Positions 1 through 14,368 of a stretch of 14,368 nt of DNA are shown here, piece by piece. This stretch comes from Fibrobacterales bacterium. GTDB taxonomy: Bacteria > Fibrobacterota > Fibrobacteria > Fibrobacterales > JAOPTW01. The notes below the pieces were generated by a model that worked only from the letters and a program-made list of their open reading frames with translations, was not told the origin of the DNA and made no database searches. A program made the translations under genes and the position numbers. How positions within the stretch are numbered: position 1 is the stretch's first letter; each line of letters begins with the position of its first letter. Where the stretch lies: contig JAOPTX010000100.1 of the NCBI GenBank assembly GCA_051532055.1, positions 1 through 14,368 on the forward strand. The letters are read 5' to 3'.

Positions 1-150
1 TGGACATAGGAATGGGCAGAGTATCTGTTTGGGAGACTGCATAGTTATGCAGGGAAGAAAATATTTTTGTAGAAGCCCCACCGTCCATGGTGGGGCTAGT
101 TTACTATATTCTATCTAGTCATACGTTAGCATAAACAATTATTGGGTACA

Positions 151-597
151 ATGACAAAAATAATTATTGGCATCTTTGGATTAAGTATTGTTATAGGGTT
201 TTTAATTCTACATAACTTTGATTTTTTGCTTAAAACAAATCAACTTCAAGTTATAGAGAATGGGCATGAACTGAACATAGAAGCATATCAAAGAGGAAAG
301 GACCAAATATTAATATTTTTGTACCCGACCAATGTCTTATCAAATATACTGTTAATCGATCACTCATCTAATATTATTTATAGCGTCAATCCGCCAAGAG
401 AATTTCTAGGAATCAAATTTTATAATTCGGACACGAAGTATCCAGGAATTAAAATAGATGATGGTGTAAAAATGGAAGGATGGGAATATAAATTCAAAAA
501 TAACGTATATAAAATAAAAAGTTTAGATTCCACTTTAAATGTACATGGTACCGCCAAAATCCCAATGAAAGAATATCGCCTCGAAATAAGGCTATAA
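151..597 (+). CDS. Hypothetical protein with N-terminal membrane anchor/signal
   Basis: ORF 142..597; ATG at 151 preferred over TTG 142; hydrophobic stretch IIIGIFGLSIVIGFLIL; no recognised domain. Confidence 0.7.
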   Translation: MTKIIIGIFGLSIVIGFLILHNFDFLLKTNQLQVIENGHELNIEAYQRGKDQILIFLYPTNVLSNILLIDHSSNIIYSVNPPREFLGIKFYNSDTKYPGIKIDDGVKMEGWEYKFKNNVYKIKSLDSTLNVHGTAKIPMKEYRLEIRL

Positions 598-703
598 AGC
601 ATACCAATAAATCAAATGGGTAAGTTCACGACCATTATCCAAGTGATAACAGAAAAGTTAAACATCTATTAAAAAACCTGTTTATAAGTAGGAATCTGGA
701 TGG

Positions 704-778
704 ATATAACGAAACGTTGGAGCGGTAATTGAAAAGAGTTATATTGTGGAATAAATTCCGCTCAACTAAAAGTTATTA
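704..778 (+). repeat. Classical-architecture attC site
   Basis: R'' ATATAAC(704-710), 5-nt spacer, GTTG[G]AGCGG[T]AATT(716-730) pairing with AATTCCGCTCAAC(754-766) with two unpaired bases, 5-nt spacer, R' GTTATTA(772-778). Confidence 0.65.
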
Positions 779-826
779 TGGAAGGCTTTGATATATTGAT
801 CCATTACCGTGACACAGAATAACTAT

Positions 827-1591
827 ATGAAAAATATTATAACCTTATTCTCCGTGATTATTTTACAAGCGTTTGTAGGATGTTCAGCGAGTAAGCCTTT
901 GAAGGAGACTAATGAGTATCATTTCACAGGTGATGTTAAGGATCTATTAGATACAACAGTAGCATATAAAACTAAAACGATTGAACCTATATACATTGAC
1001 GGTAAGTCACATACTTTTATATCACCTGAATTTCCTGATTATCAAAAAATAATGGGAAAAAAGATGAATAACCCTCGGCAGTTATTGTTGTCAAATTTGG
1101 ATTGCTGGTCAAAAGTATCGAGTGATGCCTCCTGTAGAACTGAGGTACTATTTTCAGATTCCTCAAAACAGATATTACAGATAATTAAACAAAAAAGCTT
1201 CCTGGGTTGGTTGCAGCCTGACGAAACTAAGCGAAAACCCAAGAGGATATTTGTTTTTAAAGAACCAGATCATAAATTATTCCATTCATTACCCTTCAAT
1301 GATGAGGCGCTTGTTACATATTTTAGAATGCGTTCTGATATTAAATCCATAACAACATTTAAAGAAGAGCCCCCCTCAATGGCCTCGATTGTTGTGGTGG
1401 GTATTATGGTTGCAACTCCTGCTTTTCTTGCTTCTATGGTCATAGAGTCAGTAGTGTATGCAATAGATAAAAATTATTCATGGAAACGAGTTGGGATATA
1501 CACTGGTAGTATGGTAGGTGGGGTAATGGGGCTCGGGCTCGTATTATGGACCGGTGAAATCTCAGTCAAAATTGTGAAAGTAGATTTCTAA
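827..1591 (+). CDS. Hypothetical lipoprotein with two C-terminal TM helices
   Basis: MKNIITLFSVIILQAFVG-C lipobox-like N-terminus from ATG 827 (ORF track starts at GTG 809); two hydrophobic segments near the C-terminus. Confidence 0.75.
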   Translation: MKNIITLFSVIILQAFVGCSASKPLKETNEYHFTGDVKDLLDTTVAYKTKTIEPIYIDGKSHTFISPEFPDYQKIMGKKMNNPRQLLLSNLDCWSKVSSDASCRTEVLFSDSSKQILQIIKQKSFLGWLQPDETKRKPKRIFVFKEPDHKLFHSLPFNDEALVTYFRMRSDIKSITTFKEEPPSMASIVVVGIMVATPAFLASMVIESVVYAIDKNYSWKRVGIYTGSMVGGVMGLGLVLWTGEISVKIVKVDF

Positions 1592-1689
1592 TAATATCTC
1601 CGCCGTCCCTGGCGGCGTTCGCTAAAAAAAAACATTTTCTTTTCTCCCAAATGGACATCATGCAAGGCATGCCCATTCCTACGATCCAC

Positions 1690-1755
1690 CAACAACAAAA
1701 GCACAAAACCTTTTTCCTAAATATGAAAAAGGCTTCGTACATTTTGTGAACGTTG
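1690..1755 (+). repeat. attC-like core site 1
   Basis: CAAC-aacaaaa-GCAC..CCTTTTTC-ctaaatat-GAAAAAGG..GTAC..CGTTG. Confidence 0.8.
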
Positions 1756-1804
1756 CAAGACATATTTTATTGGGGATTAAAAGTGAGATTATTTTTAAAT
1801 TTTA

Positions 1805-1833
1805 GGAACATTTCTAGATGAATAATCGTCTAA
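1805..1833 (+). promoter_or_regulatory. Putative ECF sigma promoter
   Basis: GGAAC-N17-CGTCTAA; same motif and spacing at 2995 and 7127. Confidence 0.65.
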
Positions 1834-1862
1834 CTAACAAATCAACTAATTTTGGATTATTA

Positions 1863-2813
1863 ATGAAATATTCTATTGGACTTACCTTAATCCTTTTCCT
1901 TTTAAATTGTGCCGAATCAACAAATAATAATGACTTAGTGCAAGAAGAAACGGAATCAATACAAGAAAATACAACCGCACTTTGTTCTGATGGATTAGAC
2001 AATAATCAAAATAATAAAATAGATTGTGAAGATTATAATTGCTTCAATATGACTGTATGTACTGATAAGTATAAGGATGGTCCATATTGTCAAAAGAACC
2101 CTGACTTGTGTGGTTATTTTTTGGACTCTCGTGACAGCAATGAGTATAAATGGGTGAACATTGGCTCACAAGTGTGGATGGGTGAAAATCTTGCATATAT
2201 TCCAGAAGTTTCACATGTACATATTGGTTCTGAGCTTAGTTCGGCAATGGACGATTCATATTATTATGTATATGATTTCCCTGAATATGATTCTTTAGGT
2301 GAACATTTTCATAATTATCAAGAGAGTCAATATTATTTGTCATTTGGTGTTTTGTATAATTGGAATGCTGCTATGAAAAAAGATTCAGCAAGTAACCTTG
2401 TTCCAAGTGGAGTTCAAGGAGTATGTCCTGATGATTGGCACTTGCCTTCTAAAGATGAATGGGATATTTTAGCAGAATATATAGATCAACAATTGGATAA
2501 TGTTGGGCCAATGAGTGATCAACCTGATAGGATTCATTGGGAGTATGTAGGCGGGTATTTGCAGGCACAGAGTGGGTGGCGAGATGACAATTTTGATAAA
2601 CCCGATTCAACAAGATTTGGATTTTCCGCTTTACCTTCCGGAGTGCGTTCAAATGCCCAATTTGATGGATACATGTATTTTGGATATTGGTGGACATCTA
2701 GTGAATTTTCAAAAGAAAGAGGTTGGTATAGGTTGTTGGCATCTAATGGTTATTTGCAATCTCCCTCTCGAGATAAAAGTTTAGGGATGTCGGTAAGGTG
2801 TTTAAAAAATTGA
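1863..2813 (+). CDS. FISUMP (Fibrobacter succinogenes major paralogous domain, Fib_succ_major) lipoprotein
   Basis: Motifs DSRDSNEYKWVNIGSQVWMGENL, GVLYNWNAAM, GVCPDDWHLPSKDEW, GFSALPSG, WWTSSE, GMSVRCLKN; lipobox LLN-C; Cys/Asp-rich CSDGLDNNQNNKIDCEDYNC motif; ATG 1863 preferred over 1818 because the putative promoter overlaps 1818. Confidence 0.9.
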   Translation: MKYSIGLTLILFLLNCAESTNNNDLVQEETESIQENTTALCSDGLDNNQNNKIDCEDYNCFNMTVCTDKYKDGPYCQKNPDLCGYFLDSRDSNEYKWVNIGSQVWMGENLAYIPEVSHVHIGSELSSAMDDSYYYVYDFPEYDSLGEHFHNYQESQYYLSFGVLYNWNAAMKKDSASNLVPSGVQGVCPDDWHLPSKDEWDILAEYIDQQLDNVGPMSDQPDRIHWEYVGGYLQAQSGWRDDNFDKPDSTRFGFSALPSGVRSNAQFDGYMYFGYWWTSSEFSKERGWYRLLASNGYLQSPSRDKSLGMSVRCLKN

Positions 2814-2858
2814 TAACTGAATAGTATCTAAATATAACCCCCAATAAAATACATCTTG

Positions 2859-2931
2859 CAACAGCCGAAGCACTCAAGCTTTTTTCTATGCACTGAAGTG
2901 CAAAAAGCCTGCGTACATTCGCCAAACGTTG
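2859..2931 (+). repeat. attC-like core site 2
   Basis: CAAC-agccgaa-GCAC...GTAC..CGTTG; 71/73 identical to site 3. Confidence 0.85.
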
Positions 2932-2994
2932 TAGTCAATTTAAAAAGGGGCCAGTAAGTGCCTTCGGCATTTATTGAATAAATTCTATTTTTGA

Positions 2995-3023
2995 GGCACA
3001 TTTTTTCTTTTATTTTCGTCTAA
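2995..3023 (+). promoter_or_regulatory. Putative ECF sigma promoter
   Basis: GGCAC-N17-CGTCTAA upstream of the lipoprotein gene. Confidence 0.6.
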
Positions 3024-3050
3024 TAGATGTGATATCAATTGGTGCCCAAT

Positions 3051-4193
3051 ATGTTTAAAATTTTAATACTTGTAGTTTATGTTTTTTTGCTCTGCTCTTG
3101 CTCATGGTTAATGGATGGGGATTCCTCTTCACCAATTGAAAGTAATTGGATTAAAGATAAAAATATTGATGGATATTCTAATGCGCAACTCAATAGTAGT
3201 ACCAGAAATGATACCCTATTCGTTGCAACTATAAATGATTACTATATCATGTCAATTGATTCTTTGTCAGATGGTTTTGAGGTGATAACACGATATACTA
3301 CTCATGATTATTTTGATATGGGGCAGAAGCCTACGATATCAAAAGACTATTTAATCAGGTTCAATGATCAGTCTTATTCCTTGCTTGATTCAAATGATGG
3401 TTTGTACAATCATATTCCACAACTTTATATAGAGGTTTCAAAGACCGAAGATTTATCTAGGCCTTCTAGCATGAAGTATCCAAGAGTTGATTCTCTTGAT
3501 TTTGGTGTTAACATTCAAGAATCTGAGTTTTACCCACAAGAACAATGCCTAATTTCAGGTGATCGAGGTGTGTTTTTTTATAGATATCTCGATACAATTG
3601 ATGAAAAAGAGGTGAATAACAACGTTGCTTTCTTTAGTATTACTCCAGATAAAAATCGTAATTGGTTACCCAATATTTCGATTGATAGCACAATGAGTTT
3701 AGGACAAAGACACTTAAATATTACAAGCCTAAATACTATTGATGGATACTTTTATTTTAGTAGCAGAGAAGTGTTTGTTATAATTTCGCCAAATAATATT
3801 GTTACAATACAAGAAATTAATTCTAATGATGACATCATATTTGATGTTATTAAAGATCCATTTGGTTCAAAATTGTTTAGAATACACGAAAATAAAATTA
3901 TGGAATCCACTGATATGGGATATAGTTGGATTGAAAAGTATTCCGTTTCACATTTTTACAGTACGATGCACTATGTTCAAATTGATTCAAAAATTATTGG
4001 TTATTCAATGAATCAAATATTTGAAATTGTTATGGGAGATGATGGTGTCATCGTTAATGAAATTAACAATGAGGGCATCGGACAAACTCAAATTACTTCC
4101 ATTAGTAATGTTAATGATGAAATGATTTATCTCACGACCACAAGTGGTGGTTATTATAGAAAAATGGAAGATTTTTTTGAGTATAAAGAATAG
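3051..4193 (+). CDS. Hypothetical lipoprotein, probably beta-rich/propeller-like
   Basis: MFKILILVVYVFLLCS-C lipobox from ATG 3051; one Asp-box-like STDMGYSW; the TAG stop lies inside the cassette's right inverted arm. Confidence 0.8.
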   Translation: MFKILILVVYVFLLCSCSWLMDGDSSSPIESNWIKDKNIDGYSNAQLNSSTRNDTLFVATINDYYIMSIDSLSDGFEVITRYTTHDYFDMGQKPTISKDYLIRFNDQSYSLLDSNDGLYNHIPQLYIEVSKTEDLSRPSSMKYPRVDSLDFGVNIQESEFYPQEQCLISGDRGVFFYRYLDTIDEKEVNNNVAFFSITPDKNRNWLPNISIDSTMSLGQRHLNITSLNTIDGYFYFSSREVFVIISPNNIVTIQEINSNDDIIFDVIKDPFGSKLFRIHENKIMESTDMGYSWIEKYSVSHFYSTMHYVQIDSKIIGYSMNQIFEIVMGDDGVIVNEINNEGIGQTQITSISNVNDEMIYLTTTSGGYYRKMEDFFEYKE

Positions 4194-4212
4194 CCCCTTT
4201 TTAAACTGACTA

Positions 4213-4285
4213 CAACAGCCGAAGCACGCAAGCTTTTTTCTATGCACTGAAGTGCAAAAAGCCTGCGTACATTCGCCAAGCGTTG
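4213..4285 (+). repeat. attC-like core site 3
   Basis: Near-identical to site 2. Confidence 0.85.
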
Positions 4286-4538
4286 TAGAACATTATGCAA
4301 GACATCACATCATACTATGTAAATAGATAGAGAAGTAATACCCGGCTCATGAATTAAATATTACCGGCCACGAAAGCGGCAATCGTCCTAATTGCCACAG
4401 GTAAATTATTTTTAAAATAAAGAAGTATTTGAGAATTATGATTTATAGTAGTTGTAAATTCTTTGTAAATAAAAGAGGCTGCAATGATTCTACTTTGCTA
4501 AAAAATTACATTTGTCCTTTATTAAAATGAAGGTTTAC

Positions 4539-6245
4539 ATGAAGATAAAACTCTTAATTATACTAGTACTAGCCTTACTTTCATTTGCTTTTTCAGAGAC
4601 AAGAACTGTTCTTTGTTTTAAAGACAATATCAGTACTCAGGATAATGTTTGTAATAATAATGATTCACTACTAAGTGCCGTTGCAAAATCAGGTAATTAC
4701 GATTACGTAATAATAGGTAATGGTGTATGGAAAGACCTTGCAATAAATATCAACACATATTACTTGAGGTTTTTGGCTGAGGAAACAGGTAAAGTTTTTT
4801 TTACTGGTCAATCAAGTATTATTGTTAATGCAAAAAAAGTTGAAATAAGAGGTATTACCTTTAAAGATGGAGGATTGCCTCCTGGTAGTGAGTCTATAAT
4901 AAAGCTTTCTGGTGGGAGCAATGAATCAACTATAGAAGATTGTGTGATTTCATACTATAACCCAGAAGATCCTATGACAGAGTATGATTGGATCCACATT
5001 GGTAAAGGTAATAATAACAAAATCAGAAACAATATTTTTGAAGGTAAAAATCACAAAGGAACTCTTATAGAAGTAAGACATAGATTGTGCCTACAGTCTT
5101 CAGAAGCTTGTAATATACCAGTATTTATTAAAGAAGGTATAGTTGATAATCAATTATATGAGAATACAACAATGTATTATCCTAGTAATACGGGGAATAA
5201 TATTATTGAAAAAAATACTTTTATAGATTGTATTAAAGGAAATGATAATAGCAATGGATATGAAATAATTCGTATTGGTTTAGATGTTGAGCAACAAATA
5301 ATATCAAACAATATTGTTAGAATGAATTTATTTGAAAATATTTTAATGGAAGATGAAATAATTTCTAGCAAATCTACTGGCAATAAATATCTCAATAATG
5401 TTTTCAAAAATTGTAGAGGTGGTTTGTCCCTAAGACATGGGAATGATAATGTTGTAATGGGAAATGTGTTCATGCGAGGAAATGAATTTAATGATAATAT
5501 GTCTGGACTATTTATAATGGGGGAAGGACATATCGTAGTAAATAATTATTTTCAGGGGCTCAATGGCAATGCAATTCAGATAAGGTATGGAGATAAAGAT
5601 GTCTATTCCAATTCGTCTAATGGTTTTGCATTTGTAAAAGATTTAATTTTAAGTTTTAATACTTTTGTTGATTGTAGCAGGTACTTTTATTTTTATCAGC
5701 ATGAAAAACAATTATTATCTCCCACGGAAGCGAACATATCTCACAATATCTTTCAAACAGGTACAGAATTACAAGATTTGTTTTTAGTAACTAATACGGG
5801 AGATTGGAACTCACCAGAACAAAAGTATGATAGAACATCATCTAAGGATATAAATGAAATTCCTGATGTTTTTTGGAATAAGAATATATGGGCATCGACA
5901 TATCAAGAAAATGAACTGATGGTTAATAACTATATAGGCAGTGTTTTATATCTCTCCAAAGATGATCTCTATAAACCTAAACATGAATTAAGTAATTTGT
6001 TACTTGAAATAGATTTGCCTGAAAACCTAAAGTCAATTATGAAAAATGATTTATATGGGGGATTGCGTTCTAATGAATTGATGACAATTGGAGCTATTGA
6101 AGTTATGGAAACGACACAACATGACCCCAATTATACTTTGGATGAATTGATGTCTTTACCTTTGCTTTTTAGGCCAAATTCAAGAATGCTAAATAGTTCG
6201 ATGAATACAAATTACTTAATGCCAATAATTTCAATACTAAAATAA
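4539..6245 (+). CDS. Secreted polysaccharide lyase family 6 (chondroitinase B / alginate lyase-like beta-helix)
   Basis: PL6 motifs NGYEIIRIG, EDEIISSKS (catalytic Lys position), GGLSLRHG (catalytic Arg position), GHIVVNNYF; signal peptide from ATG 4539 with GAAGG upstream; substrate not determinable. Confidence 0.85.
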   Translation: MKIKLLIILVLALLSFAFSETRTVLCFKDNISTQDNVCNNNDSLLSAVAKSGNYDYVIIGNGVWKDLAININTYYLRFLAEETGKVFFTGQSSIIVNAKKVEIRGITFKDGGLPPGSESIIKLSGGSNESTIEDCVISYYNPEDPMTEYDWIHIGKGNNNKIRNNIFEGKNHKGTLIEVRHRLCLQSSEACNIPVFIKEGIVDNQLYENTTMYYPSNTGNNIIEKNTFIDCIKGNDNSNGYEIIRIGLDVEQQIISNNIVRMNLFENILMEDEIISSKSTGNKYLNNVFKNCRGGLSLRHGNDNVVMGNVFMRGNEFNDNMSGLFIMGEGHIVVNNYFQGLNGNAIQIRYGDKDVYSNSSNGFAFVKDLILSFNTFVDCSRYFYFYQHEKQLLSPTEANISHNIFQTGTELQDLFLVTNTGDWNSPEQKYDRTSSKDINEIPDVFWNKNIWASTYQENELMVNNYIGSVLYLSKDDLYKPKHELSNLLLEIDLPENLKSIMKNDLYGGLRSNELMTIGAIEVMETTQHDPNYTLDELMSLPLLFRPNSRMLNSSMNTNYLMPIISILK

Positions 6246-6256
6246 TAAGGATGAAT

Positions 6257-6598
6257 ATGAATATTAAAAATTTAATGTTTTTTGTTTTGTTTTCGATAGC
6301 CACTACGTTTGCTGGTTATACTTGGACTCAAACAACAAGACCAGTTATGATTCAAGGTGATTGGTATGGTACAGGGCTCTATATACAAACAGAGAATGGA
6401 CATAATGTTTTTTTAAAACATTCAGATTTTGATTCAAAAATGTTAAATGTCTATCATACAATGTTGCTCATGGCACAAAGTGGTCAAATAAATCTCACAA
6501 TTCAATATAGAACAGATGTTACAACCTCCTATTCACCTTATGGTGTTGTGTTACCTTTTGGTCATATAAAGCAAATTCGTTCAATGAATATTAATTAG
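6257..6598 (+). CDS. Small secreted hypothetical protein, second gene of the PL6 cassette
   Basis: Signal peptide ending TFA; TAAGGA RBS directly after the PL6 stop; ATG 6257 (alternative 6251). Confidence 0.75.
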   Translation: MNIKNLMFFVLFSIATTFAGYTWTQTTRPVMIQGDWYGTGLYIQTENGHNVFLKHSDFDSKMLNVYHTMLLMAQSGQINLTIQYRTDVTTSYSPYGVVLPFGHIKQIRSMNIN

Positions 6599-6863
6599 TT
6601 ATCTCTATTCTTACCGAAAGATTAAGGACTTCACAATAATATTATTATATAAATAGGGCAGTTTCTAAGAGCAAGTCTCGGTGCGAACCACAATACGGTT
6701 TTCTATTAAGATGTTGTCTTTGGAATAACCCTAATTTAAGTTTTGTTTCATGATTCTATCAACTTCCGCTATCCTGCTACAGTTGATGTGGCCGGAAAGA
6801 GTTTAAAGCCGGGCGCTATAAAAGTACTGCATTGGTAGGGAAAAGTCTTGCATAACGATTCTA

Positions 6864-7042
6864 CAACAGGGTGAGCAGGCAATTACCGTGTCGTAAGTGA
6901 ACTGCATTCGATCGGTCGCTAAAGCTCCTCGCTCTCATGCAACCCAAGCAGAGCTTGGGAGTTCACTAACTCCACTTTTTTATCCAAAATCGTAAAGACC
7001 GATTTTGGATAAAAATAACTGCCTACTGGCACCCAAACGTTG
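6864..7042 (+). repeat. attC-like core site 4 (long, multibranched)
   Basis: CAAC-agggtga-GCAGGCAATTA...TAACTGCCTAC..CGTTG enclosing several internal hairpins. Confidence 0.8.
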
Positions 7043-7126
7043 TTTAAAATATTCGATTGTTAAAAAGAATAGAAAAAAGCTAAATTTAAAGAAATATTCA
7101 ATAATATCAGTTTTATTTAAAATCTG

Positions 7127-7155
7127 GTAACATTTTTAAAACTTTAATCGTCTAA
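7127..7155 (+). promoter_or_regulatory. Putative ECF sigma promoter
   Basis: GTAAC-N17-CGTCTAA, followed by AGGAG RBS and ATG 7185. Confidence 0.65.
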
Positions 7156-7184
7156 GTATATAAAGATCTAAGCAGGAGCTTAAT

Positions 7185-9986
7185 ATGAAAATAATAATTA
7201 TGGCCTTTCTATTGTTAACAATGCCATTGTTTTGGGGATGTGATTTATTTAAATCCAGTAAATCAACTGAAAACCTACCACCTGAGCTTACCATTTATTC
7301 AGATACAACATTAAGTGTAAATGATAGCATCAACCTTTCAGTACAGCTTACTGATGAGGATTCTGCCAGCGTGGAATATATTTGGCAAATTGACGAACTA
7401 AACATGCTTGATACATTATTTGAAAATAATATTTTAGTTGCATTTCCAAAAACTGGAACATATGATGTTATTATCACGGCAATTGATAATAAGGGCAGCC
7501 TTTCAGATCCCGATACATTGAAGGTAACCATTTTTTCATCAATGCCCTCTGTTCAAATTTCAACTACACCAGCTCGTCACCCTGTAAATGACACTCTTAA
7601 ATTTACTGTTACAGCCACCGATACAGACGGTAAAGTCATCGATTATTTGTGGTCTTTTGATAATAATCAATTTAATGTGACAAAAGAACCAATGTTTAAA
7701 GCAATATGGAGCTCAGAAGAGTTTGGTAGTAAAACTCTATATGTAAAAGTCATTGATGATGATAGCTTAACATCACTTGTTGATTCTATATCGTTTGAAA
7801 TCGCCAAATTGCAACCACAGTTAAATCTATCAGCAGACACTTCAATTTTTGTTAATGATTCAATTTCATTTAATGCTAATGCTATCGATTCTAATGGAAC
7901 GGTGGTTAAACACCTTTGGTCTTTTGATAATATAACATGGGATACTACATCAATGGCATCTTTAACCAAAGCATGGCCTATTAATGATTATGGGATTAAA
8001 ATACTATATGCTAAAGTAATAGATGATGACGGCATCGAGTCATCAGTTGATTCTACTAGAATTGAAGTTCTTTTATCAGCGCCAATAGTCAAATCAATGA
8101 GTGATACTTCAATTTTCGTAAATGACTCTATAAACCTTAATGTATCTGCTACAGATGTAAATGGGACAATATTTAAATACCTTTGGTCATTTGACAACGT
8201 AACATGGGATACTACATCAAATGCAACGTTGACCAAAGCATGGGTCATTAACGACTATGGCAATAAAACAATGTATGTAAAAGTGATTGATGATGATGGT
8301 GTTGGATCCACTATAGACTCTACCAAAATAAATGTTACTCTTTCTGCACCTGTTCTTATAGCAATGAATGATACTATAGTGGCAGTAAATGATTCGATAC
8401 TATTTACTGCGTTAGCAACAGATAACAATGGTAATATTATAAATTATTTATGGTCTTTGGATAGTGGCAAATCGTATGCATCCACAATGGAAGGAGCATA
8501 CAAATATATTTGGCCAATTAATGAATATGGTTCAAAATTAATTTTGGTTAAGGCTATGGATGATGATAATGTAGAATCTAATGTTGATACTATTGTTGTC
8601 ACAGTTAATCAATGCCTTCCCGAAGTACAGGCAATAAATTTACAAGGTCAAATCAGCGATACAATAATAAGCATAAATGATTCAATATATATTGGTATAT
8701 CGGCAACAGACTCGAATGGCCAAATATCCAAATATTACTGGGATTTCAATGCAGATGGCTGGGATGATAGTACAAGTAATACTGGTTCGTTAAGTCGTTA
8801 TTTAAAATGGCCTGCTGGTGGAAATGTAAAAGTAGTTGTAGGCGCTTTGGATGATGATGGATTAATTGGTTTAGATACATTTAATGTTTTGTTTAATAGA
8901 CCACCAACATCATGTGACTTGAATACCAATTTTAATCCTGACAAAGGTGGCTGGAGTAATTTTAATTATACTTCGGATAATGGTAGCATTCAAGTTTCTT
9001 TTACAGGTGTTGATCCTGATGGGGGTTTTGATGTCCTGAGTTATGATTTTTATTGGGGACTTGATTCAAATGGTATGACTCAAAAATCTATTGGAATGAA
9101 TGGCACTGTTTCCATCACAGATATAGAAGTTCAAACTACTTATTATTGGAAAGTTATTGCTAGAGATTTGTATGGAGATAGCACTGTGCAGACTGGTTTA
9201 TTTAGTCCCATTGATTACCCACTAGATGGAATATTTTGGAACAATACAACTGGAACGCCAAACTTTACTAGTAACTTTGATGGTCAGGTTACTACTTTTT
9301 CTCATGATGGCCAAATGTGGTTAATTGCAGCTAAGACTTACAATAACACCTCAAATATGATTTATAACTCTGCTGATGGTATCAATTGGGTCAAAGTTAC
9401 CGGAACACCAAACTTTACTAGTAACTTTGATGGTCAAGTTACAGCTTTTTCTCATGATGGCCAAATGTGGTTAGTTGCAGCTAAGACTTACAGTAACACA
9501 TCGAATATGATTTTTAAATCTGCTGATGGTATCAATTGGGTCAAAGTTACCGGAACACCAAACTTTACTAGTAACTTTGATGGTCAAGTTACAGCTTTTT
9601 CTCATGATGGCCAAATGTGGTTAGTTGCAGCTGAGACTTACAGTAACACATCGAATATGATTTTTAAATCTACTGATGGCATCAATTGGGTTAAAGTTAC
9701 CGGAACACCAAACTTTGCTAGTAATTTTGATGGTCAAGTTACAGCTTTTTCTCATGATGGCCAAATGTGGTTAGTTGCAGCTGAGACTTACAATAACACA
9801 TCGAATATGATTTATAAATCTACTAATGGTATCAATTGGGTTAAAGTTACTGGAACACCAAACTTCACTAGTAACTTTGATGGTCAAGTTGCAGCTTTTT
9901 CTCATGATGGCCAAATGTGGTTAGTTGCAGCTAAGACTTATAGCAATACATCGAATACTATCCACAAATCCGGAAGAAATAATTAA
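7185..9986 (+). CDS. Large lipoprotein: about 6 PKD/Ig-like domains, an FN3-like domain and a C-terminal repeat beta-propeller
   Basis: Lipobox FWG-C; repeated NDSI..A.D.NG....Y.WSFD..KVIDDDG units of about 89 aa; YYWKVIARD; five 50-aa repeats with Asp-box-like SxDGINW. Confidence 0.85.
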   Translation: MKIIIMAFLLLTMPLFWGCDLFKSSKSTENLPPELTIYSDTTLSVNDSINLSVQLTDEDSASVEYIWQIDELNMLDTLFENNILVAFPKTGTYDVIITAIDNKGSLSDPDTLKVTIFSSMPSVQISTTPARHPVNDTLKFTVTATDTDGKVIDYLWSFDNNQFNVTKEPMFKAIWSSEEFGSKTLYVKVIDDDSLTSLVDSISFEIAKLQPQLNLSADTSIFVNDSISFNANAIDSNGTVVKHLWSFDNITWDTTSMASLTKAWPINDYGIKILYAKVIDDDGIESSVDSTRIEVLLSAPIVKSMSDTSIFVNDSINLNVSATDVNGTIFKYLWSFDNVTWDTTSNATLTKAWVINDYGNKTMYVKVIDDDGVGSTIDSTKINVTLSAPVLIAMNDTIVAVNDSILFTALATDNNGNIINYLWSLDSGKSYASTMEGAYKYIWPINEYGSKLILVKAMDDDNVESNVDTIVVTVNQCLPEVQAINLQGQISDTIISINDSIYIGISATDSNGQISKYYWDFNADGWDDSTSNTGSLSRYLKWPAGGNVKVVVGALDDDGLIGLDTFNVLFNRPPTSCDLNTNFNPDKGGWSNFNYTSDNGSIQVSFTGVDPDGGFDVLSYDFYWGLDSNGMTQKSIGMNGTVSITDIEVQTTYYWKVIARDLYGDSTVQTGLFSPIDYPLDGIFWNNTTGTPNFTSNFDGQVTTFSHDGQMWLIAAKTYNNTSNMIYNSADGINWVKVTGTPNFTSNFDGQVTAFSHDGQMWLVAAKTYSNTSNMIFKSADGINWVKVTGTPNFTSNFDGQVTAFSHDGQMWLVAAETYSNTSNMIFKSTDGINWVKVTGTPNFASNFDGQVTAFSHDGQMWLVAAETYNNTSNMIYKSTNGINWVKVTGTPNFTSNFDGQVAAFSHDGQMWLVAAKTYSNTSNTIHKSGRNN
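9249..9972 (+). repeat. Intragenic tandem repeat, 150 bp x about 5
   Basis: AACTT..CTAGTAA.TTTGATGGTCA recurs at 9261, 9411, 9561, 9711, 9861. Confidence 0.95.
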
Positions 9987-10043
9987 TACTATGATGTTTT
10001 ATTAAATTAATTAAAGCCTATTTTAACAATCGAATACTTCAAA

Positions 10044-10110
10044 CAACACGAAAAGGCAGCAATAAATTTCCGTAAATATGAAATTCACAGCTGCCGTTTT
10101 CGGAACGTTG
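10044..10110 (+). repeat. attC-like core site 5
   Basis: CAAC-aCGAAAA-GGCAGC...GCTGCC-g-TTTTCG-gaa-CGTTG; same subfamily as site 8. Confidence 0.85.
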
Positions 10111-10398
10111 TAAGACATTGGCACACAATCTAGAGGGGCCGTGTGGGCTAAAATTTAAAAAATTATAATCACAGCTCTGGCAGTTCGTTGCATTTTTTAA
10201 AGCCCACCTGACAAGTAGACTGAATCACTGGGCTTTCATATTACATGACATTGCTTTCCTTTTAATTTGAAAGCAATACTCGCTTTGCTCGTGTCATGCA
10301 ATATTCAGCCCTTTAAGTAGCTCACCCTCCCTGAATGTGTAGTTTAGTCAGGTGTAGTGGCTATTTGCCCCTCTAGCTTTGCACCAACGTCTTACAAC
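10107..10398. other. ORF-less, highly structured cassette (candidate ncRNA or ssDNA fold-back)
   Basis: 292 bp between sites 5 and 6, no ORF of 60 aa or more, nested inverted repeats throughout. Confidence 0.75.
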
Positions 10399-10457
10399 AA
10401 CCGTAGCACGCAATAGTTTCTTTTAATATGAAACTACTGCGTACTCCGGCCACGTTG
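10395..10457 (+). repeat. attC-like core site 6
   Basis: CAAC-aaccgta-GCACGCAATAGTTTC-ttttaatat-GAAACTACTGCGTAC..CGTTG. Confidence 0.85.
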
Positions 10458-10558
10458 CAAGACATGTTTTCGGTTTGTGGAGGATTACTAATGTGGCCCT
10501 CAATTATTTTTGTGATATTTCTACCTTTTAATGGTATTAATTCAGTCGGCTAGTTTTA

Positions 10559-11929
10559 ATGAGTATTTTAAAATGTTTTTTCTTGGTGTTAACTTCTGTT
10601 CTTTTGATAAGTTGTTCAAAGGGTTTTGTTAATTCTAATCGAGCAACGGATTCAAGCCCAAAACCTTATTTGAAAGAAGCATACATATTATATCACATGG
10701 GCGTTCAAAATATTGGAGATGCATCAAGACGAGATAGTGATTACTTAAAGCTTATATCTGAATCATTTGGTATCAGTAAAGAGCTGGCAATATTGTATCT
10801 AAAAAAAGTTGAAATTTCGACCCCAAAACAGCGAACAAAGAAATGTTTATACTATCTACAAGAGTCTTTGAAAGAACTTTCTGTAATCAAAAAACAAAAT
10901 CGACAAAAATTTTTTGTAATAAATGTTTTGAACCCATACTTTAGTTTATTGATAAATAATGTTGCAATTCCAAATGCTTTTCATAAAAACATAGCACACC
11001 TAATACCACAATATTTAAGTGGTAAAAATGCAAAAAATGAGTTTAAGAAGTTAGTGAGAATGACAATTGCCTTCGATAGTTTTAAAGAAGTTGATGTTTC
11101 TATAGTAGATAACTTTAATGTGTCGTTACACGAAATTGGTTATCATATGTTCTATAATTTAGATAACCCTTTAGCACATGTTTTTGAAATAAACTCAACC
11201 TTACTTGACAAACAAAAATGGAGTAATAAGAGCGAAACGATCACAATATACATGTTGAAACGTATTGCCCCAAATCTGTTACCTGATCTTCAAGGGTTTT
11301 CATTGTTAGGTACGAAAGAAGTATTTGTTATATCAGATTTCTTTCCATTGCTTGCAGAAGCCTATTTACAAGAACGTACAAACAAATTAACTCCTGGAGA
11401 TGCCTTTGTTGATAAGAAAAATGAGGAGGTTTGGAAAGAATTAAGTATCGACTTAACAATAGAAAATGCAAACTCAATTCTTGAAAGATTAACAAAGAAA
11501 GATTTTTCCAAAACACCCAAAGATAGTATCGTATTAAGATTGGCTTATGCTGTTGCCATACATGAGGCTAAGCATAAAGCTGATGAATATGAAACGGATA
11601 AAATATTATATAGTGTTGATTTTGAGCTTTCAGCATATTTGGCTCAAATACTATATAGTGATACACCGTTTCATTCTTTACGTATGGCATTGTCTTACTT
11701 TGAAAACATGTATGAAGCTTCTGAGGTTGAAATATACTTACCAATTATGAAAAAATTGTGGAATGTGGCTATAAAAACAGCTGAGCCAGATGTGACAACT
11801 GATATAATTAAAAAAGAGGTGTTAAAGATTTACGAAGCCCATAGAATATACTCTGGTGGTTATAGGTTTCCAAAATTGAACAGCTTTAAGAAAAAAGTTG
11901 TTCCTTTTATAAAAAAAGATTTTATGTAA
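10559..11929 (+). CDS. Lipoprotein with HExxH zinc-metallopeptidase-like motif
   Basis: Lipobox LIS-C; AVAIHEAKHKAD followed by DFELSAY (possible third ligand Glu). Confidence 0.75.
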   Translation: MSILKCFFLVLTSVLLISCSKGFVNSNRATDSSPKPYLKEAYILYHMGVQNIGDASRRDSDYLKLISESFGISKELAILYLKKVEISTPKQRTKKCLYYLQESLKELSVIKKQNRQKFFVINVLNPYFSLLINNVAIPNAFHKNIAHLIPQYLSGKNAKNEFKKLVRMTIAFDSFKEVDVSIVDNFNVSLHEIGYHMFYNLDNPLAHVFEINSTLLDKQKWSNKSETITIYMLKRIAPNLLPDLQGFSLLGTKEVFVISDFFPLLAEAYLQERTNKLTPGDAFVDKKNEEVWKELSIDLTIENANSILERLTKKDFSKTPKDSIVLRLAYAVAIHEAKHKADEYETDKILYSVDFELSAYLAQILYSDTPFHSLRMALSYFENMYEASEVEIYLPIMKKLWNVAIKTAEPDVTTDIIKKEVLKIYEAHRIYSGGYRFPKLNSFKKKVVPFIKKDFM

Positions 11930-11991
11930 AGTGCTAAATAATATGGGATTAGCACCTAATCCATCCCCCACAAACCAAAAACACGATCTTG

Positions 11992-12057
11992 CAACAGCGG
12001 TAGCAGTCAATTATTTTCCATAAAGATGAAAATAACTGCCAACTCCCACAAACGTTG
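11992..12057 (+). repeat. attC-like core site 7
   Basis: CAAC-agcggta-GCAGTCAATTATTTTC-cataaagat-GAAAATAACTGCCAAC..CGTTG. Confidence 0.85.
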
Positions 12058-12141
12058 TGTAAAATAGTATCCTTTTTTTAAAAATTCTATAAAATGTTTA
12101 TGGATTATCTAGATGAAGGCTGGTTTGATATGACAATTTCG

Positions 12142-12169
12142 TTGCTTTTACCTTACGGAATGATATAAT
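12142..12169 (+). promoter_or_regulatory. Putative sigma70 promoter with extended -10
   Basis: TTGCTT-N16-TATAAT with TGn preceding the -10 (TGATATAAT), 32 bp upstream of the MCP ATG. Confidence 0.55.
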
Positions 12170-12201
12170 AGTAGACACTAAATTTCCAAGATGAGATTCA
12201 T

Positions 12202-14202
12202 ATGAAAAGTATAAAAAAATCATTGATGGCAAAAATTCTTGTGCTGGCATTAGCATCTGGAGCTGTTCCTATTGTTGTTATCGTTGTGTTTTCGATAGTC
12301 AATATAACTGATAGCATGTTACATCAGATTGGTGAAAATTTGCGTGACAACGCAGAGATGGTTGGAAGTAATATTGATGATTTTTTTGATCAGCGAGAGA
12401 ATGATGCGCGGGTAATATCTCAAGCAAATGTACTCGAGTCTGCCGATGCAATTGTTCAACAAGGTTATTTTGACGATATTATAGATGCAAACCCTAACAT
12501 TACCGGTATTAATGTGATTAGTTCTGATGGGGTAGTATTTTCAAGTAATGGTGACCAGAATAAGGTAGGGGCAACCCTCAAATCATTTAAGCCTGACCTT
12601 GTGCCACTGTATAAGGATGCGCTATCTGCTAAGCAGGGAGATGTTCTTTTTGGAAAAGTACATATTGAACAATCAACTCTTTCGATGTATATGATTACCC
12701 CAGTTACCGATGATTCAAATATCAATGTAATTTCGGTAATTGTAATTGCAATTAATATGCAGCCAATTATTGAAAGTATTGCGCTCTTTAATGAAAATGT
12801 AATTGGTGATGAGTTTGTGTATTTGCTTAATGATGATGGAGAAGTTATTGTAACGGGTGACTCTGAACAAAAGTTATTTACAACGTTTAATGATTTAACC
12901 CACAAGCCAGATGTGCTTGATGCGACAGATGAGGATGGCTCAAAGGATTTCTTGATATATGAAAATTTTAGAGACATTGAGGTTATTGCAGGAATGGCTG
13001 ACATGAGAGCACATGGAGTTAATAATGGTCTCGATTGGGGAATTGTTGCAGTAGCTGAAACAAGTGCTATTGCGCAGCCAGCCTATACATTAAGAAATTA
13101 TCTGCTGCTCATTGCTATTATAGTCCTTGGTATAATAGCAATCATTGCAGTTATAATATCAAGAGCAATAATTGCACCGTTAAATAATGTAAACAAAGGG
13201 TTGCAAGATATTGCTGAAGGCGAAGGGGACCTTACGAAAAGATTAAAGTCTACAACAAACGATGAAATTGGTGAACTTACAGACTGGTTTAACCAAGTGA
13301 TGGAAAAAATTAGAGTAATCATTAAGCAAAACAAAGATAGTGTTAATTCTATAAAAGACTCGTCATCAAATCAAAATGAGGCCGTAACCTCTGTTTCAAA
13401 TGCAACTAATTCCATGACAGAGAAGTCACGAAAAATTGCCCATGATTCTGATTCAGCTACAACTAATATTAATGATATTTCTGAGAATACTGCTCACCTT
13501 AATGCAAATATTTCTACTGTAGCATCGGCAGTAGAGGAGATGAGTACTACGACGAATGAAATAGCACAAAACTGCCAACAAGAGCTTAAAATTGCGGGAG
13601 ATGCGAGTAAAATGGCTCAAGATGCAAATAAAACAATGGAAACAATGAAGCTTTCCGCCGATAAAATAGGTAAAGTTCTCGATACCATAAAAGATATTGC
13701 AGACCAGACGAATCTTTTGGCGCTGAATGCTACAATTGAGGCAGCATCAGCAGGGGATGCTGGAAAAGGTTTTGCTGTGGTAGCAAGTGAGGTTAAAGAG
13801 CTTGCTAAACAGACATCTCAGGCAGTTGATGATATTGCCTCTCAGGTTGCTACTATGCATACAAGTACTAATGATTCTGTAAAGTCAATTGAATCCGTAT
13901 CAACAATTATTGAAGAGGTTAATGTGATTTCTCAGACAATTGTAAGTGCTATTGAAGAACAATCAGCGACGATTAATGAAATTGCCGGAAACATTTCTAA
14001 CCTAAATCAAACAAGTAGTAATGTTGCCGATAATATTAGTGAGTCAGCAAATTATATCGCAAGTATTAATAAAGATGTATCTGCATTTAGCCAGGAGGTT
14101 GATGCAATAACTGATAATATGAGTGAGATAAAAAACAACTCAGATGATCTTACAAGTATTTCAAATGAGTTACATGCCTCTGTCGGTAAATTTATCGTTT
14201 GA
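12202..14202 (+). CDS. Methyl-accepting chemotaxis protein (TM, Cache-like sensor, TM, HAMP, MCP signalling domain)
   Basis: [37 protein letters not shown] hairpin tip; [24 protein letters not shown]; two TM helices. Confidence 0.95.
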
Positions 14203-14275
14203 ATTAAGACATTAATCGAGGACGGGGTTAATGGGTTATTTAGAATTCTATCATACGATCCTCAGCTACTTCACA

Positions 14276-14342
14276 CAACACGAAAAGGCATCAATAATTC
14301 CCCAGAAAGATGGGAATTTCAGCTGCCGTTTTCGGGACGTTG
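14276..14342 (+). repeat. attC-like core site 8
   Basis: CAAC-aCGAAAA-GGCATC...GCTGCC-g-TTTTCG-gga-CGTTG. Confidence 0.85.
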
Positions 14343-14368
14343 TAGGTAATAGGTAGGGATTGGGTAGT

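Follow-up and report, generated by a model that had tools for sequence, protein, structure and literature searches.

Why should the mismatches between the arms of inverted repeats all be of one kind? The question is raised by contig C100 of a Fibrobacterales bacterium, which was analysed over its entire length of 14,368 bases (hereafter the window; the genome to which it belongs comprises 5.17 Mb in 181 contigs), and in which nine open reading frames (ORFs), all on the plus strand, are kept apart by eight repeats of 69-185 nucleotides (nt) that begin with a 7-mer ending in AAC and end with a 7-mer starting with GTT. A preliminary description of this DNA had noticed that the substitutions between the complementary arms flanking these repeats give C·A mismatches on the plus strand and G·T pairs on the minus strand, and had proposed that the arms pair within the single minus strand, as single-stranded DNA or as an antisense RNA. 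The window is a chromosomal array of mobile gene cassettes, each closed by an attC-type site, and these attC-like sites are placed 3' of the plus-strand ORFs; we consider it very probable that the sites act as hairpins of the minus strand and that the polarity of the mismatches reflects the folding of that strand.

Cassette ends and the polarity of their mismatches

Reading rightward from the GTT of one site, the sequence is the reverse complement of the stretch that ends at the AAC of the next site over 14-33 nt, and the window holds seven complete arm pairs of this sort together with an eighth that is truncated in its left arm, where the contig begins (Table 1). The arms are the two ends of one cassette, which flank the crossover, and not the inverted repeats of a transposon. 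The crossover itself is located by an ORF-less cassette (window 10107-10460; approximately 350-357 nt, longest ORF 13 amino acids) that consists almost entirely of its 33-nt arms, a spacer and its own site, and that has a second copy on another contig (C89:8025-8380). The two copies are 98.6% identical over 357 nt and keep the same 3' site behind different upstream sites, which shows that the site lying 3' of a cassette belongs to it; moreover, identity stops within GTTG and divergence begins directly after it, thereby placing the crossover there.

When arm positions are counted from the G of GTT (the crossover G) and the right arm is reverse-complemented, position 11 reads A on the left and G on the right in all eight arm pairs of the window, and eight further transitions are each either left A/right G or left C/right T. 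The sixteen substitutions of a single polarity scored in the preliminary description, eight at one conserved position and eight elsewhere, are thereby reproduced exactly; beyond that count the window arms contain one transversion (T/G, in the cassette 10107-10398) and single-base indels in four arm pairs. For the whole genome, a set of 35 sites of this kind, termed type-1, was assembled from 34 matches to a covariance model and the long site at 6861-7045; a candidate partner arm was present upstream of 32 of them, and 24 pairs passed the thresholds (a score no lower than 18, a lead of at least 4 over the runner-up, and a length of at least 14 nt). Position 11 is A/G in 24/24 of these pairs, with position 12 T/T and positions 1-4 GTTG in every pair, and positions 5-10 and 13 onward vary with complementarity kept. 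Outside position 11, 18 transitions create a minus-strand wobble and 2 run the other way, along with 9 transversions, 6 indels and 500 matches. Collapsing near-identical arm pairs leaves 17, in all of which position 11 is A/G, and splits the other transitions 14:1 (binomial p of 0.001 for an expectation of 0.5 and of 0.0003 for the compositional expectation of 0.466). In a congener (G004) position 11 is A/G in 5/6 pairs and the other transitions run 3:0.

Flanking composition does not account for this bias. Outside the sites the plus strand has an A+C (amino) fraction of 0.48-0.49 and a GC skew of +0.08 in non-coding DNA and +0.13 in ORFs, and the fraction of A·C-kind transitions expected from composition is 0.45-0.47, as opposed to the at least 0.9 that we see. 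The core stems, for which the same polarity had been claimed, bear out that claim: over 24 distinct sites the predicted folds of the minus strand average 2.75 G:T pairs per site, and those of the plus strand 0.00. The polarity is real, and its statistical footing is solid. In all 6 of the ORF-bearing window cassettes and in 16/17 cassettes of other arrays, the ORFs and the A·C mismatches share a strand; since the A·C strand is the coding strand, the wobble strand corresponds to the "bottom" strand of integrons, a criterion that is independent of the wobbles.

The same asymmetry appears in the predicted energies, which were computed with nearest-neighbour DNA parameters on reconstructed circle junctions as well as on the sites in their array context. 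Folding of both strands of each circle junction favoured the minus strand in 23/24 cases (mean -35.4 versus -28.0 kcal/mol; Wilcoxon p = 2e-7), and the sites in array context likewise favoured it in 23/24 cases (mean -18.4 versus -14.2 kcal/mol). In these models the minus strand can form a long, near-continuous helix and the plus strand cannot. One arm family (of the GGACATAGGAATGGGCA type) is common to several cassettes and occurs in many places in two genomes. In the commonest arm family (window 1-60 and 1630-1693), pairing restarts past an internal loop (the TTTGGGAG block), for a potential stem of approximately 50 nt.

By their predicted anatomy the type-1 sites are integron-type attC hairpins. 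An alignment of seven window sites and its consensus fold give a single hairpin with 21 pairs, compensatory changes being present at 12 of them; the hairpin consists of an R'' box ending in AAC and an R' box starting with GTT (both invariant in the 7-site alignment), a central bulge, an L stem and a loop. All sites were folded alike, with AAC/GTT pairing forced, and in the resulting predictions the bottom strand of the type-1 sites carries a 2-4 nt bulge on the 5' (cleaved) arm directly after CAACG, beside the R box, opposite which 0-2 unpaired bases stand on the 3' arm (23/24 sites); a further single bulged T or C on the same 5' arm is frequent. Canonical attC sites have two extrahelical bases on the R''-L'' arm, which is 3' in the bottom strand; this trait does not appear in these predicted folds.

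The covariance model (R1), built from the seven window sites, gave 37 matches in the genome across 17 contigs, C100 among them, and did not pick up the long site A4 (6861-7045). Among 151 genomes of the order it matched only in this genome and in one congener, and it had zero matches at five loci of integron integrases (IntI) of other phyla and in five Fibrobacterota genomes with related recombinases; R1 is specific for one sequence family and does not capture the architecture. A custom hairpin finder recovered 7/8 window sites, two boundaries being wrong, and served as a rough aid only.

Table 1. Positions of cassette arms and recombination sites along the window
Feature	Position	Strand	Remarks
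Left arm, cassette 1 (cut by contig start)	1..19	+	pairs with 1670-1693; pairing picks up again past an internal loop
Right arm, cassette 1, R'' included	1670..1693	+	
Left arm, cassette 2	1752..1779	+	pairs with 2835-2862, 28 nt; C/T at 10, A/G at 11 and 25
Right arm, cassette 2	2835..2862	+	
Left arm, cassette 3	2928..2951	+	pairs with 4193-4216, 24 nt; A/G at 11 only
Right arm, cassette 3	4193..4216	+	
Left arm, cassette 4	4282..4303	+	pairs with 6845-6867; one extra T in right arm; A/G at 11
Right arm, cassette 4	6845..6867	+	
Left arm, cassette 5	7039..7065	+	pairs with 10021-10047, 27 nt; A/G at 8 and 11
Right arm, cassette 5	10021..10047	+	
Left arm, cassette 6 (ORF-less)	10107..10139	+	pairs with 10367-10398, 33 nt
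Right arm, cassette 6	10367..10398	+	
Left arm, cassette 7	10454..10485	+	pairs with 11963-11995, 33 nt
Right arm, cassette 7	11963..11995	+	
Left arm, cassette 8	12054..12067	+	pairs with 14266-14279, 14 nt; A/G at 8 and 11
Right arm, cassette 8	14266..14279	+	
Type-1 site A1 (R'' CACCAAC ... R' GTTGCAA)	1687..1758	+	covariance model 75.7 bits
Type-1 site A2	2856..2934	+	covariance model 76 bits
Type-1 site A3	4210..4288	+	97% identical to A2; covariance-model match
Type-1 site A4 (long, 185 nt)	6861..7045	+	R boxes and arms; 91% identical copy on C89
Type-1 site A5	10041..10113	+	covariance model 77.4 bits
Type-1 site A6	10392..10460	+	covariance-model match
Type-1 site A7	11989..12060	+	covariance-model match
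Type-1 site A8	14273..14345	+	covariance-model match
Canonical type-2 attC, nested in cassette 1 between two ORFs	704..778	+	same kind as the sites beside the true IntI

Proposed minus-strand folding and its alternatives

We infer that the minus strand folds in vivo, that the bias has been selected and that the fixed wobble has a role of its own. Excision as a circle at G|TT would join the two arms of a cassette, thereby lengthening its R''/R' stem to 14-33 nt, and it is the minus strand, the complement of the coding strand, that would fold during excision or capture. A recombinase would bind the R duplex, with the T·G wobble and the adjoining T:A pair marking its outer edge at 11-12 bp, and the hairpin formed in the excised circle would gain stability from the long arms specific to each cassette. 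The T·G at position 11 might serve as a mark for recognition or for strand choice at the outer edge of the recombinase site; on the plus strand the same position would present an A·C mismatch within a weaker helix, and that strand would go unused. The attC anatomy, the crossover and the folding of the circle junctions all support the earlier proposal that the arms are not transposase-type inverted repeats of double-stranded DNA but pair in the single minus strand. Of the two forms in which such pairing had been envisaged, single-stranded DNA is the better option, given that in any transcript 0.3-3 kb separates the arms, which only the excised circle brings side by side.

That distance is also the principal difficulty for an antisense RNA, in which arms and cores would pair with G:U on the minus-strand transcript. 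A G:U polarity is the usual signature of RNA structure, and metatranscriptome contigs from the same sample do run over two sites and parts of some cassettes, albeit strandless and at a thin cover (depth 0-2.4) that possibly represents DNA carry-over; in view of the full attC anatomy, with AAC/GTT at the demonstrated crossover, and of zero Rfam matches at the gathering score in a scan of the window, we judge this explanation very improbable. Much the same holds for the idea that strand-asymmetric deamination (plus-strand G to A or T to C) has been decaying perfect inverted repeats, which would make the polarity a mutational artefact. Inside the sites and arms the plus strand does have a negative GC skew (-0.09 to -0.12) and a positive AT skew; outside the sites, however, the GC skew is positive and there is no excess of A+C, whereas deamination that yields a 14:1 split needs the opposite skew, and an A/G at position 11 in 24/24 pairs and in other families of the phylum amounts to conservation rather than decay. 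Such an artefact can scarcely be the explanation.

It might also be supposed that the bias was selected mainly to weaken hairpins in the sense mRNA, which could terminate transcription or block ribosomes, and that minus-strand folding is merely tolerated. The location of the A·C mismatches on the coding strand (6/6 window and 16/17 external cassettes) and plus-strand cores that are weaker by approximately 4 kcal/mol speak for this supposition, and for the cores it is compatible with minus-strand folding; it leaves unexplained the fixed wobble at position 11 outside the core and the polarity in the arms, since these do not lie side by side in the mRNA, and as the main cause we find it unlikely. 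Hardly credible at all is a derivation of the arms from terminal inverted repeats of double-strand transposons or miniature inverted-repeat transposable elements (MITEs) abutting the sites. Repeats of that sort would account for the GGACATAGGAATGGGCA-type arm family, which recurs on several cassettes in two genomes, but not for at least 17 distinct arm sequences that each have their own partner and always start at the GTTG of a site; the window cassettes contain no transposase, and for double-stranded repeats the polarity of mismatches is meaningless.

Several points nevertheless weigh against the folding of the minus strand as the source of the polarity. The two transitions of opposite polarity, the nine transversions and the six indels are present among the 24 arm pairs; the pairs were picked by complementarity, which leaves fewer mismatches visible yet cannot bias their polarity; and kin cassettes have arms in common, such that some relatedness may persist after the collapse to 17. 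The evidence is wholly computational, the modelled energies being derived from nearest-neighbour parameters. In the array 0.3-3 kb lies between the arms, and the long stem can form only once a circle has been excised or where long stretches are single-stranded. One DNA sequencing run, available as contigs only, as was the one RNA run from the same sample (both without strand information), showed no circle junctions, and the joints that the sequencing contigs do contain represent other genomic contexts of repeated sites and not excision products. Short metatranscriptome contigs cover two type-1 sites (window 2869-2906 and 4218-4285) and read into the left arm of another cassette family.

Array contents, recombinases and related arrays

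The window ORFs identified by Pfam encode a Fib_succ_major protein, a chondroitinase-B-like lyase, a PKD-domain surface protein and a Cache/HAMP chemoreceptor; five of the nine have no Pfam match. The PKD-domain protein (window 7185-9986) has 933 amino acids and contains four 267-nt and five 150-nt repeats of 86-92% identity, a size and repetitiveness that are unusual for a cassette gene.

The window's own contig has no integrase. One true integron integrase is encoded elsewhere in the genome, on contig C108 (TIGR02249, 372 bits for a cut-off of 265); after it come an attI-like GTTAGAC and two cassettes whose bounding sites are of a different, type-2 kind, with R box ATAAC/GTTAT, 122 nt from R'' to R' and canonical geometry. 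Nesting of type-2 sites inside type-1 cassettes, seen in the first window cassette (Table 1), occurs also on C45, C72 and C136, always with GGACATAGGAATGGGCA-type arms. A second recombinase, on the minus strand of C46 (14354-15448), is without the IntI-specific insertion of approximately 36 residues according to the alignment, scores 184 bits on the IntI model (cut-off 265) and has NF040815 as its best family (230 bits, cut-off 220); approximately 185 nt upstream of its start lie a type-1 left arm and two type-1 cassettes. The ortholog in the congener G004 is 56% identical and has the same left neighbour (82% identical) followed by a different first cassette, as is to be expected of a platform with a variable array. 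The word GTTAGACG occurs in the attI region of the true IntI and beside the start codons of two recombinases without the insertion, those of C46 and of G004:C3 (L001 2940; L094 6459; L009 ~4080). N-terminal extensions are found in the C108 IntI (L001 1480-2844; approximately 140 residues), in the C46 enzyme (100 residues) and in an enzyme of a metagenome contig, L113 (approximately 265 residues), and Pfam gave zero matches on these recombinase extensions.

Arrays of similar architecture accompany insertion-less recombinases elsewhere. On L113 a 533-residue enzyme is associated with a co-oriented array of at least 7 sites, in which position 11 is A/G in 4/6 computed pairs, A/T in the other 2, and A/G by eye in a seventh; co-oriented arrays in three other Fibrobacterota genomes show A/G at position 11 in 4/4 (G252, locus L169), 3/3 (G262, L179) and 4/4 (G292, L172) adjacent pairs. 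In these four arrays position 10 often holds a second mismatch, or there is an extra T. Pairs starting with GTTTT (L169, L179), non-adjacent cross-pairs and three L174 pairs were set aside, since they flank no attC-type hairpins. A metagenome scan with the C46 recombinase yielded no relative above approximately 41% identity; among metagenome loci of at least 4 kb only L113 has a clear array, and the sister enzymes of its recombinase (L116 and L121) have none in the available flanking DNA. Downstream of an insertion-less recombinase of Fibrella forsythiae (L042 11180-20798) there are repeats of 220-250 nt with a CACCCAAC...GTTGGGTG hairpin.

These associations open the possibility, to which we give an even chance, that the type-1 arrays constitute a second, IntI-independent system of cassette capture run by a Xer-like tyrosine recombinase without the IntI insertion. 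It is equally balanced whether strand choice in such a system would rest on the extreme G·T/A·C polarity, on the bulge of the cleaved arm and on the fixed T·G (sometimes with a bulged T) that lies 10-11 bp from the crossover within a long stem specific to each cassette; and we are evenly divided as to whether it would coexist with a classical integron in one genome and extend its architecture across several Fibrobacterota families. Insertion-less recombinases next to type-1-like arrays were found at six loci, one of them in a genome without a canonical IntI, and their recurrence at array heads across families, together with this near-complete genome devoid of IntI (G262, 99% complete, with no match to the IntI model above the cut-off, the best being split, without the insertion and at 128 bits), argues in favour of a separate system. 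In the VchIntIA-VCR complex the IntI insertion reads the extrahelical bases. The segment missing from the protein would hence be the reader of the bases missing from the site, a coincidence that makes mechanistic sense. Conversely, a true IntI is also present in 4/6 of the genomes, and arm-type arrays occur in only 3/18 flanks of related recombinases of the phylum (L169, L172, L179), many of the remaining flanks being short contigs. In a tree of 34 recombinases the insertion-less enzymes fall outside the IntI clade (99/99 support) and do not form one clade themselves. Cury et al. (2016; PMC4889954) also speak against a separate system, in that recombinases without the IntI region near attC sites are there judged not to be IntI.

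The polarity finding in itself is the more modest one, in that it confirms, with an especially clear case, a rule already in print. Single-strand recombination of cassettes is held to have become possible through the IntI insertion and the extrahelical bases that it reads, and integron-finding programs use both as criteria. Type-1 arrays keep, and even exaggerate, the single-strand signature without that insertion and without canonical extrahelical bases. Should Xer-like enzymes indeed run these arrays, cassette capture would have arisen or would persist without the IntI insertion, many "integrase-less" attC clusters might have an overlooked enzyme, and the fixed T·G wobble would offer a simple, mutable handle on how a tyrosine recombinase picks the strand of a hairpin.

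Comparison with integron attC sites and other known systems

The likeness to integron attC sites is extensive, comprising a hairpin site, an AAC/GTT R box, the 3' R box as the place of crossover and cassettes composed of an ORF and a site. The principle of polarity has likewise already been published for the bottom strands of integron attC sites: according to Nivina et al. (2016; PMC5027507), 263 attC sites that belong to mobile integrons have 1.24 G:T pairs on the bottom strand versus 0.39 on the top strand, and a bottom strand that is 2.12 kcal/mol more stable, which was proposed to favour bottom-strand folding. In type-1 sites the bias is far stronger, with 2.75 versus 0 G:T pairs per core and 7.4 kcal/mol at the junction. 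The stem is also longer, being 14-33 nt as compared with the usual 7-11 bp of R''/R'; according to Bouvier et al. (2009; PMC2727003), R'/R'' pairing reaches 9-11 nt in most cassettes. Type-1 sites have, in addition, an invariant T·G wobble at position 11. Neither a fixed wobble beyond the R box, nor arms of 20-30 nt, nor integrons in Fibrobacterota were mentioned in the accessible passages of PMC2727003, PMC7439510 and PMC5027507 or turned up in full-text searches, supplements excluded. Long arms, an invariant T·G, the lack of canonical extrahelical bases and nearby Xer-like recombinases combine in a class of sites that appears to be new.

The position of the unpaired bases differs too. In predicted folds, two class 1 plasmid sites and the type-2 sites of the same genome show a near-symmetric central spacer with single extra bases on the 3' arm, whereas the extra unpaired bases of type-1 sites are on the 5' (cleaved) arm. 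Control arrays beside true IntIs (L015 and L018; 21 rows) gave 18 predicted G:T pairs on the bottom strand versus 19 on the top strand, which is a weak control, noisy and made of regular-expression picks; rows from a further control, L021, were set aside, having been folded on the locus strand, which on later judgement runs opposite to the cassette strand. In these arrays of L015 and L018 (Acidobacteriota) the R stem stops at approximately 9 bp and position 11 is without a wobble; their cassettes start with G/C-GAC-A/G at 8-11 after GTTNNNN, in resemblance to the GACAT of many type-1 cassettes.

At the level of the whole platform, the type-1 arrays resemble IntI systems and sedentary chromosomal integrons in that a tyrosine recombinase gene heads a variable array at a conserved chromosomal place; they differ from them in that the recombinases beside type-1-like arrays are without the IntI-specific insertion and lie outside the IntI clade. 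Arrays of attC type with no IntI nearby, as on C100, which has none, recall the clusters of attC sites lacking integron integrases (CALINs) described by Cury et al. (2016; PMC4889954). What sets type-1 arrays apart from CALINs is the recurrence of insertion-less recombinases at array heads in six loci. A further parallel is provided by XerCD, which acts on the folded single-stranded attP of CTX phage and integrates the phage at dif. By analogy, the type-1 arrays may likewise combine a Xer-type recombinase without the IntI insertion and a hairpin from one strand, with the difference that the product there is a phage integrated at dif, whereas here it would be an array of gene cassettes.

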